Counted from the stretch's first letter, positions 25,636 through 32,791 are shown. The stretch is 64,000 bases of DNA from Cirrosporium novae-zelandiae (GCA_026023565.1 JAPETS010000016.1:558001-622000), one strand, 5' to 3'. Translations and numbers: made by a program. The notes: a model not told the origin generated them from the sequence alone.

Positions 25636-26676
25636 TTGACGTCAAATCTTGAATGAAAGGAAGACGGATAAGGAGCAAATGGCACGATAAATTCGGTCGT
25701 CACGACACTAGATTCAAATGTTTGGGAGGAGCAAAGATATCCAAGGACCCCAAGTTCACACAGCACCATCAGAAAAAGAGACACATAAGCGCATTTGGGT
25801 GATGTTCGCCATGAGTGTTGGAAACAGTCAGTATATGTGGGCGCGGGGCATGAGAGATTTCCAGGAATAATCAATAGGCCATGCAAGAAACTTATGATTA
25901 TAGGATTGAAGGCGAAGTTGGGGGGGTTGAAGTTGACGCCCTTGGCTAGCCAAAGTGGATGGGAGGTCGTTCTGGTGGCAGGATGAAGGCGCGGTAGGAG
26001 ATAGGTAAGTTTGTGAGGTGGTGGAACAGGGAACGAATATTGAAGTTCAAATCAGCGGCTTCCTCACCCAGTCGTGCCAGTGTTCTTTTTTTATTCTAAC
26101 CAAATGTGGGATTAACAGGGATTTACTGAGACTAGCAGGGGGGGAGAATGGATAAACCAAAATTCCAAGGGGGATTACTGCCCTTACTACCCAGACACGC
26201 CAAATTACTTAGTACTTTGGGGGGGAGACACGGGGACACGGGGAGGCAAAGGGCCAAAGTACCTACCTAGAGGTACCTAGAGGTACCCAAAGAGAACGCT
26301 AAAACCAAATACAAGGCTGTGTATTATTCTGAGCTCTCTCTCAGACGAAAAAAAACAAGCCTTGGGCAACATTAGCAATCATAAATCATAAAATCATAAA
26401 TAACTATCTACTTCTTCGCGCGAGAGTGCTTAATATATCAATAATCAGTATCCTTCCTCCTTAGGTTTTGGAGGAACCCCCTTGATTTTAATTCTTACCA
26501 TCTTCTTGTCTCTGTCATTCCCATCCTCTTCTAGCCGGCTTTCTTTTTACTTTCGTAATAGCATAGCTATTTTGATTCTTGAACTGTCGCACAACCATCA
26601 TCTCCTTGACAGACACACAGAACAGCTTATACATCTCTCTACAATACCTTACGCCTTTTCCGGCTGCTAGTAATCT

Positions 26677-27796
26677 ATGCATCGATATCGAGGGGCCTCA
26701 TTTGGTGGCGGTCCTAGCAAAGCCTCTGCTACAACACTCTGCCAGAAATGCTTGAAACGAGATAAGACCTCTTCGATTGTTAGACAGGACTGGAAGCTAA
26801 CATTATCCTTACGGCACTACAGCTATGAATGCAAGGTCACTGCCCAAGAACGACCATATCTCTCTCGACCTTCTCGAACTCAGCAACTCTCAAACCCGTC
26901 GCTAGTCCCTAAATTAACAAGCGATGTGCCAAATGATCTCCTTCGAAAGTACGCGATATTCTCCCCTTGACATTCATAACCACTCACCAGATGTTTTTAG
27001 AAAGGGAATTGCCGACGAGCAACTAGCTAAGCGGGAAAAAGAACGAGCTAGGTCGCGCTCGTCCTCTGTTGTTCGTAGCAGAAGCAGAAGCAGAAGTAGT
27101 GGTAGAAGACGCCGATCTAGACCTAGGTCAATTTCAACGTCGTCATCGGGTTCAGTCTCCACCATCTCGACAAACCTCTCACGGTCAGGCTCGCTCAGGC
27201 GTAGGCAAATGGACGAGGATTCCGAAAATGACCAATTCTATACTTCTCAAAACCCGGTAGGGCTACGAGGGAGCAGCCCTCCATATCGTGAGAGTCGGAA
27301 AAGACGACATTCATCGACATCGTCATCTCTTTCATATATATCCGACTCGTCCACATACAAGCAAAGATCTAAAAACTCTCACGAACCTCCTCGCAATACA
27401 AGACGTCGCAGGTCTTCCAACAGCCCCGGTGAACGTGGTAGGAATTTTGGCAATTCTAGGCGCAGTGGTCGGGGAAGAAGTCGTAGTGGAAGTAGAAACA
27501 AAAGTTTCATTGCACGAAATAGACGATCGATGACCCCTGAGGATAAACAATCAAGAAGCCCAATGGATTTTGGACGAGATGGAAGGAATTCCCGTTACGA
27601 AGAGGAGGATACGTTTGCAAACCATGGTTCTGACTCCATGAGGAATGGATCAATGAGGGATCGGGAAGGCCGAGGCTCGAGAATGGATCATTTCAATGGT
27701 GGAAATCAGAACCGGCAACTTCGAAGAAAGGAGCGCAGTCTGAGTCCGTATGCCAAACGGATAGCTTTAACTCAAGCAATGAACATTGGTAGATAA
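26677..27796 (+). CDS. ZCCHC10-like zinc-knuckle, Ser/Arg-rich protein
   Basis: Exons 26677-26761, 26813-26948 and 27001-27796. Spliced knuckle CQKCLKRGHYSYEC followed by RPYLSRPSRT, an RS-rich body and a RSLSPYAKRIALTQAM C-terminus. Intron 1 is AT-AC. Confidence 0.85.
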
Positions 27797-28299
27797 TCGA
27801 CTTCCGTCTTGTTTGGATTATGGTGTCTTGGTCTTTACTTTGGGGAGAATTCAAGGAACTTTGGCGGCTTTTGGTGCTAGGAATCCCACAAAAAAGGAAG
27901 ACTGGTTATGGAATGGATTGAGTTGTATCGATTCTGGTTCATGGTCAGTGAGAGATTATTCCTTTGGGATTTGGTATTATATTTCTTTTGTAGGAGACCA
28001 CAATTATTCAGAAGCCTATGTGCTTTGCTACTCTTCATGACTAGAGAATTTACAATGTGTATAACTCTCAGTCGTCATCCATACATTCATGCATACATAC
28101 ATGGCCGTGTGCAATACGAAAGTTTACTACAAGAACAATTCTGTGTTTTATATCTAACAATTATAATGTATATAGTTCTACTACTTCAAGTAAGGACTAC
28201 TATTGCTTGCGGGTAATCCATACCGCTACCTTTCTCCACACACATCATCCTAGGATTTTTTTTATTGTTTGTCCGAACCAATCACTACACATCCTTGAA

Positions 28300-29338: not shown

Positions 29339-29926
29339 TCATATCATATCATGGTCTCTGATTTCCTCCTGTTCCCTCAGATGTATGCCTTCAACCAAAC
29401 TCACTCCCTCCATAGTCACATCTTCCCCTTCCTTTGTCGACTCATTTCGTCCCTCTTGTGCTTTCTGAGTACCTTCAATCCTTTCTCTTACGAGCCTAGC
29501 AATAGCATTCTGCGTCCTGGGTCTCAAGATCGTCATTTTCTCGTCCAGCCGTCGCTTGAGATCTGCAGTAGGTTTTTTTGGTTGTAATTTGAACAGATCA
29601 ATTGGTTTATCCTCAGCTTCTTCTCGCATAGCTTCTTCCGCCACGGCTTCGCTGATCTCTTTGGCCTGGTCCTCGAGCGTGATCTGTCCGTCTATAGGAG
29701 TATTTTCAAACCCCAGCTTGGGTCCACGAGTCTCAAAATCGTAGTTTCGGCCGGTTAAATGTTTCGATATCGCATCATCTAAGGGTTCATCTTCAAGTAG
29801 GTCATTGCTCCCCTCCCGTGCATCTTCAGCTACCTCGGATTGCTTGCGTTTTAGAGATCGTAGCTTGGCAAGTCTTGCCTTGCGCTCGTTTGCTGCGGCG
29901 TCGAGACTGGTATGATTAGATGACAT
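29339..29926 (-). CDS. cwf18: Pre-mRNA splicing factor Cwf18 (CCDC12)
   Basis: Motifs ERKARLAKLRSLKRK, GRNYD, DLFKLQPKKP-DLKR and RTQNAIARLVRERI. Confidence 0.9.
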   Translation of the reverse strand: MSSNHTSLDAAANERKARLAKLRSLKRKQSEVAEDAREGSNDLLEDEPLDDAISKHLTGRNYDFETRGPKLGFENTPIDGQITLEDQAKEISEAVAEEAMREEAEDKPIDLFKLQPKKPTADLKRRLDEKMTILRPRTQNAIARLVRERIEGTQKAQEGRNESTKEGEDVTMEGVSLVEGIHLREQEEIRDHDMI

Positions 29927-30274
29927 GTTGAGAGAGAGTATATGTTGTCTTCAAAAAACGTAGTATTTTGTACCTGGAAGAACGAGTGTTGTGTATAAGC
30001 AAGTTACTTGGGAAGATAGTCTAGTTGCGGAAAAGAGCTCTCGGTAAGATTCATGGAGCTAGCAAAGTAGACTAAGCCACAGTCATAGCCACCAGCCTCA
30101 ACCTTAAATTTTTGATATCAACTCCAAACTCTGAAAGTTGCAATTATTTCAAAAGTTCGAAACACTATTCAACGACCTTGGCGATACATATTTCTCCCTC
30201 CAAAAAACCCCTGTACACCAGTTCTTCTCGGCTTTGCCATTGATGGTTGTTCACCTCCAAGAAAAGAACGGTTA

Positions 30275-32791
30275 ATGCCAGTCCGTGTACCAGGCCCATC
30301 GCGATGCTCTGCTTTGTCTGAGCTCCCAGTTCTTCCATTTCTCGCCCCCCGATTACTCCGTCCATGGCCATATCCTCGACTAATACAGACTCAAACCCCT
30401 CACATCAAGACTAGCCGGCTCAAATGTCAATGTGATGGACAACGCGGGCTGCAACAGCAGATATCAAGACCCACTTGCTATCAGCGACCGCACCAATTAC
30501 AGAGGTCATTAACCGGACTTGCTTTGGATCAAAAGCAAGAACCCAGGCATCCAGTTACCGAAGACCCAAGCAATAAACGGCCACAAAAATCAGGTTGGGA
30601 AAAAGAATGGAAGAACCTTCTCAATGACGGACATGCAAATAAAGCCGAGATCCTAAAAACGCTAGGAAGGACAGCCGAGGCATTTGGGAATGATGAAGAT
30701 GCATTGGCATGGGCGGAAGAACATATCCAGGACATTTCAACCATTGAAAACATTTCGAAGGAATGGGAGAAGCTCTCATTTAATGAGCGTACGATATTTT
30801 GGCCAACTATAATACTACAATATCTCCAAACGTCTCCACGCAACGCTATACATTTTCTCAAGGCTACTTTTTTACTTGAGCCGGAGCGTTGGGAACCATA
30901 TTCTGGAGATTGTATCAATTACCTCTGCACATTCTACCTTGAAGATGCTAAAGGTAGTGATTTTGAACGCAACTACGACCTATTGAGTGAGCTCCTTGAA
31001 ATACTTGATCACAACTTTAAGCTGCAACATCGATACCAATTCCTCATATTTGTTTTAATTAAGCATGCTACACCCCTACAACTCGTTGACCTTTTCTCAA
31101 AGTATTGCACCGACGAAAGGCGGATTCGAAGTTGGACTCTTCTTCAATTTTCCCGGGCCTTTTGTGATGTTGGTGACACAAATTCAGCACTCAAAGTGCT
31201 GAAGTTACCACAGATAGGCCAAATGGCATATTGTTCTAACCCCTATGTTGTTAAAAGATTTCAAAGCGGGGTTGTCGGTTTGGTTAATGCGGTTAGGTTG
31301 AATGATCCCGATAACCTATTCAACATCTTTGAGGAATTGCTTATCATGTATCCATCATGTTCCAACAGCTATAATGTGGTTATCTTGTGTTGCATTGGCC
31401 AGGGAGATTACAGAGGCGCCTGGGATATATACGAGTCAATGCTACAGCTCGAAATTACACCGAATGAAATGACCTTTTCAACGCTCTTGAAGATGGTCAA
31501 GGAACGGTTGAGCCCAGAAGACCTTCAACGAATAATTAAGGAGGCCACATCTTTCGGCATACTAGATTCAGCTTCCCCACAGTATCAAAGTGAATCACTA
31601 CCATGGGAAATTCGCCAATATTATTCTTTGCTTATCGTGAATTCCCTTCGTGAAGGAGAGATACGCAATGCTATGGATCTATACGAGTTATCTAAGCAGC
31701 AGAATTTCGAACCAACATTTACGATGCTTTGGTTTTTCCTGCAGGATGCTAGTAATCGTCGCGATTTCAATATGGCTCAATGGGTGATAAAGGAGGCTAG
31801 CTCACTGGGCTTGATGCAGACTAACAGAATGTTCGGTTCTAGTGCCATGGTCGCTATTTATCGAATATACAGTGGCAGCAGGCGTACTGGATATGCTGCA
31901 ATGCTATCAGTCTACAGAACCTTTTTTAGTATCAAACCCCTTGTAGACCTCGGCATCGTATCAGGACATACAATGCAGTTGGATGATACTACACCTGAAC
32001 CGTCACTAGCAGTGTTAAAGCCACTTATTATGGCGTTCGTTCGTCAATGTACTAATAAGGAAAAACTATACGATATCTGGCTTCGATATCAGCATCTTGT
32101 CAACACTGGTCACCCAGTCATCTCTCGCTTGGTAGCGGATGACTATATCAATAACGCCTTCATCATTTCATTCGGGGAGCTGAAAGCGACGTTGAAGTTT
32201 TGCACCCGTGTGCTAGAATTTATGCTCCAACCGACGGATGTCAACATTCAGGGAACTTTTGAGCCTGTGACGAAACAGGTGCCAACCATTTACACATGGA
32301 CAGTCGTCCTATACGCCTTTTCCAGACACGGACAACGCAAGGCTGCCGAAAAAGTCCTAACAATGATGAAAAAAAGAGATATCACACCGAACAGCGTTAC
32401 TTTCAATTCCTTACTGTCTAGTCACGCCCGAGCGCACGACATAATGGCCGTGGTGAATGTGCTAGAAAGAATGCAGGACGCCGACCTCGAAATGGATTCT
32501 CATACGTTTACAATCCTTTCAGTTAACGGTATGTCGAGCTTGTTGGAAGAAGCTTTCCGGCAGTCGAGGGAGAACCGAGGACTTGATATTAATTCCAAAC
32601 ATGCGGAAGACGGGCTTGAAGATATAAAAGAAGGCCGTGAGACTCTCTTTGAGGATTTGGGTGGTCAAGGCAATGAGGCAGGGCTTGAGGATCGTAGTAA
32701 CGAAGATATGCACATTGATAATGAGCACGTTGATAACCAGCATGTTGATCTGGCGGTATCCAGCACAATGGACGGTTTATCTGAAAGATAA
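30275..32791 (+). CDS. Pentatricopeptide-repeat protein, probably mitochondrial
   Basis: Single-exon 838-aa ORF with an Arg-rich presequence-like N-terminus (LPFLAPR) and PPR motifs such as PTIYTWTVVLYAFSRHGQ and PNSVTFNSLLSSHARAHD. Confidence 0.85.
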   Translation: MPVRVPGPSRCSALSELPVLPFLAPRLLRPWPYPRLIQTQTPHIKTSRLKCQCDGQRGLQQQISRPTCYQRPHQLQRSLTGLALDQKQEPRHPVTEDPSNKRPQKSGWEKEWKNLLNDGHANKAEILKTLGRTAEAFGNDEDALAWAEEHIQDISTIENISKEWEKLSFNERTIFWPTIILQYLQTSPRNAIHFLKATFLLEPERWEPYSGDCINYLCTFYLEDAKGSDFERNYDLLSELLEILDHNFKLQHRYQFLIFVLIKHATPLQLVDLFSKYCTDERRIRSWTLLQFSRAFCDVGDTNSALKVLKLPQIGQMAYCSNPYVVKRFQSGVVGLVNAVRLNDPDNLFNIFEELLIMYPSCSNSYNVVILCCIGQGDYRGAWDIYESMLQLEITPNEMTFSTLLKMVKERLSPEDLQRIIKEATSFGILDSASPQYQSESLPWEIRQYYSLLIVNSLREGEIRNAMDLYELSKQQNFEPTFTMLWFFLQDASNRRDFNMAQWVIKEASSLGLMQTNRMFGSSAMVAIYRIYSGSRRTGYAAMLSVYRTFFSIKPLVDLGIVSGHTMQLDDTTPEPSLAVLKPLIMAFVRQCTNKEKLYDIWLRYQHLVNTGHPVISRLVADDYINNAFIISFGELKATLKFCTRVLEFMLQPTDVNIQGTFEPVTKQVPTIYTWTVVLYAFSRHGQRKAAEKVLTMMKKRDITPNSVTFNSLLSSHARAHDIMAVVNVLERMQDADLEMDSHTFTILSVNGMSSLLEEAFRQSRENRGLDINSKHAEDGLEDIKEGRETLFEDLGGQGNEAGLEDRSNEDMHIDNEHVDNQHVDLAVSSTMDGLSER

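Follow-up and report, generated by a model that had tools for sequence, protein, structure and literature searches.

A probable U2-dependent AT-AC intron in the zinc knuckle of a ZCCHC10-like gene of Pezizomycotina

In a window of 64,000 nucleotides (nt) from Cirrosporium novae-zelandiae (Xylobotryomycetes, leotiomyceta, Pezizomycotina; GCA_026023565.1, JAPETS010000016.1:558001-622000), the whole stretch of DNA analysed here, a ZCCHC10-like gene carries 51 nt in the midst of its zinc-knuckle codons. This segment, 26762-26812, is very probably a true spliceosomal intron that has AT-AC ends and belongs to the U2-dependent or 'type II' kind. It has the anatomy of an intron, its ends are conserved and covary among orthologues, it is non-coding in nature, and it is precisely absent from open reading frames (ORFs) on short contigs of relatives. 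From sequence we infer its excision in C. novae-zelandiae itself and, since Ascomycota are reported to lack minor splicing, its probable dependence on the major spliceosome.

Anatomy of the segment

The gene lies on the plus strand and its parts are as follows.

26677..26761, + strand: exon 1 of the ZCCHC10-like gene, from ATG up to base 1 of the interrupted Gly codon (MHRYRG...CQKCLKR plus G); the N-terminus aligns with orthologues
26762..26812, + strand: probable AT-AC intron, phase 1, 51 nt, with U2-type signals; it splits PF13917, and the same intron stands at the same codon in 40/80 loci
26762..26767, + strand: predicted 5' splice site ATAAGA, following exonic AG; ordinary donor consensus but for A in place of G at +1; +6 is A
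26796..26801, + strand: predicted branch site GCTAAC; its branch A is 26800, 12 nt short of the intron's final base
26811..26812, + strand: 3' terminal dinucleotide AC (intron end TTAC)
26813..26948, + strand: exon 2, with the last two Gly-codon bases, then HYSYECK...RPSRTQQL...DLLR, ending inside a Lys codon
26949..27000, + strand: intron 2, ordinary GT-AG (GTACGC...TTTAG), 52 nt; orthologous loci have introns at the same position
27001..27796, + strand: exon 3, KGIADEQLAKRE..., with an Arg/Ser-rich region and the conserved C-terminal ...RSLSPYAKRIALTQAMNIGR; stop codon at 27794-27796

Read without splicing from the ATG at 26677, the frame gives ...CQKCLKR-D-KTSSIVRQDWKLTLSL-R-HYSYEC. Exon 1 ends in ...CGA G and exon 2 starts with GG CAC TAC, so removal of 26762-26812 rebuilds the Gly codon (G/GG, the slash marking the junction) and the CX2CX3GHX4C spacing of the knuckle. 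Only with this segment removed is the spacing restored. The junction register is fixed and no sliding is allowed, since the exon and intron bases beside each proposed junction differ. There is no GT at the donor position of the segment and no AG between the branch site and the acceptor (26802-26812).

The knuckle matches PF13917 (zf-CCHC_3) with E 1.9e-15 and 56.9 bits against a cut-off of 27, and the matching region comes in two pieces, one on either side of the insert; hence the insert splits the profile. The 51 nt are of the local intron size, as intron 2 of the same gene has 52 nt.

Mechanistically, U1 and U6 would recognise the donor AG/AUAAGA, which follows the consensus everywhere but at +1, and U2 would pair with the branch site GCUAAC, 12 nt away from the 3' end. 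Pairing of the terminal intron bases, A(+1) with C(-1), would replace the usual G-G pairing and so enable the second step. Splicing would then join G/GG and restore the knuckle Gly of CX2CX3GHX4C.

Intron ends and signals among orthologues

A first protein set comprised 121 sequences, namely the window translation and 120 matches. The knuckle is intact in 73 of them, and the other 48 have an insert that always begins with D and ends with R around an unconserved interior. This D...R signature arises because G/AT gives D and C/GN gives R.

At the DNA level, metagenome contigs were scanned with an insert-bearing query (tblastn), and the best 80 of 391 confirmed loci were classified by the region between the codons for CQKCLK[RK] and HYSYEC. 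The Gly codon is interrupted by AT..AC in 40 of these 80, by AT..AA in 2 and by GT..AG in 3; it is free of an intron (GGN) in 33 and unreadable in 2. The AT..AC introns all sit in phase 1 of the Gly codon, as in the window. Mixed ends, AT..AG or GT..AC, occur at none of the 80 loci, so the first and last intron bases covary perfectly.

Such recurrence of AT..AC at one codon, in half of the independently assembled loci, is more than chance. It bears also on a sequencing or assembly error that would hide true GT and AG ends, an idea that the origin of the window from a metagenome-assembled genome invites. The AT..AC loci represent 26 distinct sequences and the D...R codon signature recurs in dozens of named species, and the probability of such an error is close to negligible.

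With the window included, the distinct intron-bearing sequences number 30, of which 28 are AT-type and 26 of these AT-AC. The 28 AT-type donors are ATATGT (11), ATAAGT (9), ATACGT (3), ATGAGT (2), ATAGGT (2) and ATAAGA (1). They have G at +5 in 28/28 and T at +6 in 27/28; in intron 2 of the same loci these are 29/33 and 21/33. Among the 46 intron-bearing sequences (the window and 45 loci), 45 have A as the exon base at -2, versus 19 of 33 intronless loci; this bias is in keeping with selection acting on the exonic donor bases. Of the 28 AT-type introns, 26 contain a CTRAC branch whose A stands 10-12 nt from the end.

Short branch-to-3'-end spacing of 10-12 nt is also typical of U12-type introns, whose donor box is ATATCC(TT). 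Both the spacing and the AT-AC ends would thus suit a U12-type intron served by an unnoticed minor spliceosome. However, the ATATCC box is found in 0 of the 28 distinct donors, all of which fit the ordinary consensus besides +1, and the branch is the ordinary fungal CTRAC. Moreover, minor introns and their small nuclear RNAs are reported as absent from Ascomycota in two surveys (PMC2846911, PMC10639083), as the initial annotation of this DNA had held for its lineage. A U12-type intron is therefore hardly credible here.

At 26802-26810 in the window, near the 3' end of the intron, ATTATCCTT resembles the U12 donor box but stands at the wrong end. The likeness is probably a coincidence, as it does not recur as a shared feature in the orthologous introns compared.

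Half of the distinct AT-type introns (14/28) contain in-frame stops, which rules out a coding role for the segment in the organisms concerned. Its interior is not conserved, while the ends and the CTRAC box are. At three loci (L013, L019 and L046) intron 1 is absent, intron 2 is kept and the GGY codon is intact, a pattern that indicates precise loss of intron 1.

Intron 2, which follows ...LLRK, has GT-AG ends in 32 of the 33 distinct sequences, the exception being L079 with GC-AG; its length ranges over 50-141 nt in all three phases. The AT-AC intron spans a narrow range of 45-63 nt across species. All 30 distinct introns of the locus set have 48, 51, 54 or 57 nt, multiples of three. That the intron always has such a length was considered and rejected as an artefact of the tblastn ranking, because at least 22 of 88 models in a sample ranked by exon 2 are frame-shifted.

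Some variants were noted at the same site. Two nearly identical loci, L004 and L005, have an apparent AT..AA form of the intron (...CTAACTACCCTTTAA/GC). Three protein clusters (P0134, P0146 and P0227) have S for R before HYSYEC, as A/GY would give. GT..AG introns occur at the exact same phase-1 position in L041, L068 and L069, which are divergent relatives. Their exon 2 is at most 70-77% identical to the proteins compared, the most divergent in the set, and the protein search gave no close named relative for exon 2 of L068. A protein source-named Quercus suber (P0337) has G...G across the insert, as a GT-AG intron would give; its nearest named relatives are Elasticomyces and it is probably a fungal contaminant.

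Spliced forms in relatives and public gene models

An unbiased sample was obtained by an exhaustive profile-free search with 44 exon-2 residues alone, and the best 150 cluster representatives were sorted by the residues before HYSYEC. The knuckle is intact in 54, whereas in 88 the residue next to HYSYEC is R (85) or S (3), which is what an intron ending in C or A would give ahead of GN. Seven are forced or aberrant and one is uninformative. Among the 88 intron-bearing models, 28 read through in frame (45-60 nt). In the other 60, H is preceded by R (57) or S (3) and exon 1 is either absent or in another frame, its frame being +2 in 19, +1 in 3 and unknown in 38.

These counts bear on whether the 51 nt are coding, forming a real 17-residue loop in the knuckle as the deposited model has it. 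The window segment is indeed a multiple of three without a stop, and the public model of the window gene and 28 of the 150 representatives are annotated so. Yet stops interrupt half of the distinct AT-type segments, at least 22 models are frame-shifted across the segment, and the interior varies between conserved ends and CTRAC box. Moreover, the knuckle is intact in 54 of the 150 representatives and in short-contig ORFs of the same species, and the insert would replace the invariant Gly and split PF13917. A coding loop is thus very unlikely, and the segment is far better read as an AT-AC intron.

Cluster look-ups gave several models per species, which allowed comparison within the species. 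In Podospora anserina, 60 nt are kept as coding in the genome model P0045, and a Logan ORF (P0259), open from the 5' leader, has exactly that 60-nt segment absent and is identical elsewhere (300/300). In the Aspergillus fumigatus group, P0280 on contigs up to 19 kb reads through intron 1 and ends at intron 2; a 305-residue form (P0281, whose contigs do not exceed 2 kb, and P0269 with 692 contigs) has both introns absent and identical flanks (73/73). In Botrytis cinerea, the knuckle is intact in the B05.10 model and in the Logan ORFs P0293 and P0294, and other models are frame-shifted or truncated.

The metagenome loci contain no pair of complementary DNA and genomic DNA among the 80, the best pair being 79% identical. 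One further model, P0277 (JGI, 322 residues, on a contig of 6925 nt), reads through intron 1 with intron 2 absent and comes from the same organism as P0270 and P0278. P0270 is the fully spliced form and P0278 the genomic exon-3 ORF. P0277 may be an intron-1 retention transcript or a mere gene model.

Several points weigh against an intron. By sequence alone, the window segment, a stop-free multiple of three, is compatible with a read-through protein, and its donor ATAAGA is the weakest of the set, with A at +6 where 27 of the 28 have T. The ranking of the 80 loci favours in-frame inserts of about 51 nt, so their proportions are not population estimates. The short-contig ORFs are probably transcripts, as judged by their shape alone, i.e. 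short contigs, an ORF open from the leader and the absence of both introns. A search for RNA runs that contain window 26300-28000 listed none.

The initial annotation had described the segment by its ATAAGA start, AC end, 51 nt, GCTAAC at 26796 and the restoration of Gly and spacing, and the sequence confirms all of this. Its claim of an intron with AT-AC ends and U2-type signals is borne out by the ends, donors and stops of the orthologues and by the spliced-form ORFs of relatives. It had named beforehand a check for AT...AC termini in orthologous genomic DNA, and they are there at the same codon in 40 of the 80 loci. The 17-residue insert, whose conservation as protein would have spoken otherwise, is variable inside and stopped in 14 of 28. 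That gene predictors would miss the intron also holds, as the deposited model reads through it and many other models are wrong.

The public protein of the window gene is a hypothetical protein of 355 residues from the metagenome-assembled genome of C. novae-zelandiae. Over the first 90 residues it is 100% identical to the read-through translation. By length arithmetic, its 355 residues correspond to 26677-26948 joined with 27001-27793; the 51 nt were thus annotated as coding, and intron 2 alone was removed. By the same arithmetic, the spliced product would be a ZCCHC10-like protein of 338 residues instead.

The window gene is not alone in this, since 95 of the 150 representatives in the exon-2-ranked sample are mis-modelled at the knuckle. 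Models with ...CLKRDNYEC... or ...CLKRDIYEC... were noted in Aspergillus section Fumigati (P0272, P0274 and P0275) and Penicillium salamii (P0260 and P0261). They look like the product of a forced GT-AG junction, with the GT at donor +5/+6 and the AG inside the HYS codons, by which the knuckle residues G-H-Y-S are deleted. RefSeq-type entries are among the wrong models with this forced junction (...CLKRDNYEC...), and truncated models occur in well-known species, e.g. Pyricularia oryzae 70-15 and Histoplasma.

Retention, spread and persistence

The initial annotation went further and proposed a switch, in which the AT-AC intron is spliced inefficiently and its retention yields a full-length protein with a broken knuckle, as a splicing-fidelity sensor or for autoregulation. 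Retention in the window would indeed preserve the frame, and the major spliceosome is reported to be less efficient on AT-AC pairs (PMC1557818). The Arg/Ser-rich protein tail and a nearby cwf18 gene would suit such a role, and P0277 could be a retention transcript, or else a gene model. The cwf18 gene is about 1.5 kb downstream of the ZCCHC10-like gene.

29339-29947, - strand: cwf18 gene, PF08315, E 1.4e-38

However, the in-frame, stop-free state on which the switch was based is not conserved, since stops occur in half of the distinct orthologous introns (14 of 28). Of the 88 intron-bearing models, just 28 read through in frame and at least 22 are frame-shifted (+2 in 19, +1 in 3), so retention would shift the frame in many species and in most of them would yield a truncated protein. 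The persistence of AT-AC ends can moreover be explained without any function by a two-mutation barrier, considered below. A conserved dual-protein switch is not supported, as neither the length in multiples of three nor the freedom from stops is conserved among orthologues, and an intron that doubles as a switch is quite unlikely. A species-specific effect, or regulation via inefficient splicing as such, may exist.

Of the other early claims on the gene, the adjacency to cwf18 is correct. The term 'SR-like' suits the protein in part: its C-terminal part is Arg/Ser-rich, but no Pfam domain besides the knuckle was found in the window protein. Neighbouring open frames have a Fic/DOC domain (PF02661, 20289-20903, - strand), a SUZ domain (PF12752, 22951-24498, - strand) and PPR repeats (PF13041 and others, 30116-32788, + strand), and are ordinary fungal genes.

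Phylogenetically, the D...R or R-before-H signature is found by source names in Penicillium, Aspergillus, Talaromyces, Emergomyces, Histoplasma and Cladophialophora, which we take to be Eurotiomycetes. It is found also in Colletotrichum, Podospora, Trichoderma, Claviceps, Beauveria, Cordyceps, Fusarium, Pyricularia and Daldinia, presumably all Sordariomycetes, and in Lasiodiplodia, Phyllosticta, Lojkania, Venturia and Lepidopterella, taken here as Dothideomycetes. Further cases are Tricladium, Cudoniella and Lachnellula, Loxospora, and Glutinoglossum, which we assign to Leotiomycetes, Lecanoromycetes and Geoglossomycetes, respectively. The AT-AC intron thereby spreads over at least seven Pezizomycotina classes, including the Xylobotryomycetes of the window. 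By this spread, it is probably as old as leotiomyceta, with precise loss in some lineages and GT-AG ends in a few.

Such persistence needs no special function, because the change from AT-AC to GT-AG takes two mutations and the single intermediates, AT-AG and GT-AC, are expected to splice poorly. The two-mutation barrier, with precise loss as the other exit, is the simplest account. That selection keeps the AT-AC ends of an intron already fixed in the leotiomyceta ancestor, so that a slow second step on the major spliceosome would throttle or sense spliceosome performance for a knuckle and Arg/Ser-rich protein itself active in RNA processing, is rather unlikely. The intron could also be an in-place fossil of an ancestral U12-type AT-AC intron that the major spliceosome took over once minor splicing had disappeared from Dikarya.

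Known AT-AC introns and significance

U2-dependent AT-AC introns are described for human SCN4A and SCN5A and for TAF2 of human and Drosophila, and hypothesised for xylanase genes of filamentous fungi (PMC1557818). The knuckle intron resembles them in its AT-AC ends, its donor consensus besides +1, its ordinary branch and the conservation of the ends in orthologues. It differs in residing in a fungal ZCCHC10-like gene, in being very short (45-63 nt) and in extending over at least seven classes. Unlike these examples, its host lineage is reported to be without the minor spliceosome, which makes its dependence on U2 probable. With the U12-type AT-AC introns it shares the terminal dinucleotides and the short branch-to-3'-end distance, and it differs from them in the lack of an ATATCC-type box (0/28), in its CTRAC branch and in a lineage reported without minor splicing.

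In yeast and human, a G-to-A change of the first intron base is rescued by a G-to-C change of the last, although less efficiently (PMC1557818). The knuckle intron has the same A(+1)/C(-1) pair, and its natural covariation (AT-AC 40, GT-AG 3 and mixed 0 among the 80 loci) is what this first-base/last-base rule predicts. The rescue cases are laboratory mutants, whereas the knuckle intron is natural and long-kept. A natural AT-AA variant may exist as well, judging by two loci and three protein clusters.

AT-AC introns are reported to be rare in fungal annotations (PMC7072748), and one AT-AC case was reported among 28 genes of Fusarium graminearum (PMC3577648). Full-text searches of the literature gave no description of the knuckle AT-AC intron. 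Thus the kind is known, while this intron, the depth of its conservation and the scale of its mis-annotation appear new.

The protein itself is akin to ZCCHC10/PF13917 proteins by its 56.9-bit match, and some Aspergillus orthologues are source-named 'zinc finger CCHC-type containing 10'. The fungal proteins differ in having the Arg/Ser-rich tail and the conserved C-terminal ...RSLSPFSKRLALTQAMN motif.

For this one conserved gene, most public annotations of Pezizomycotina are in error. The codon signature 'D...R' within a conserved motif is a cheap finder for further such introns. The AT-AC intron offers a test of whether the AT-AC introns of Dikarya descend from minor introns. It is moreover a natural and long-lived case of the first-base/last-base rule that governs the major spliceosome, in easily manipulated organisms, and natural variants with GT-AG and, apparently, AT-AA ends exist at its site.
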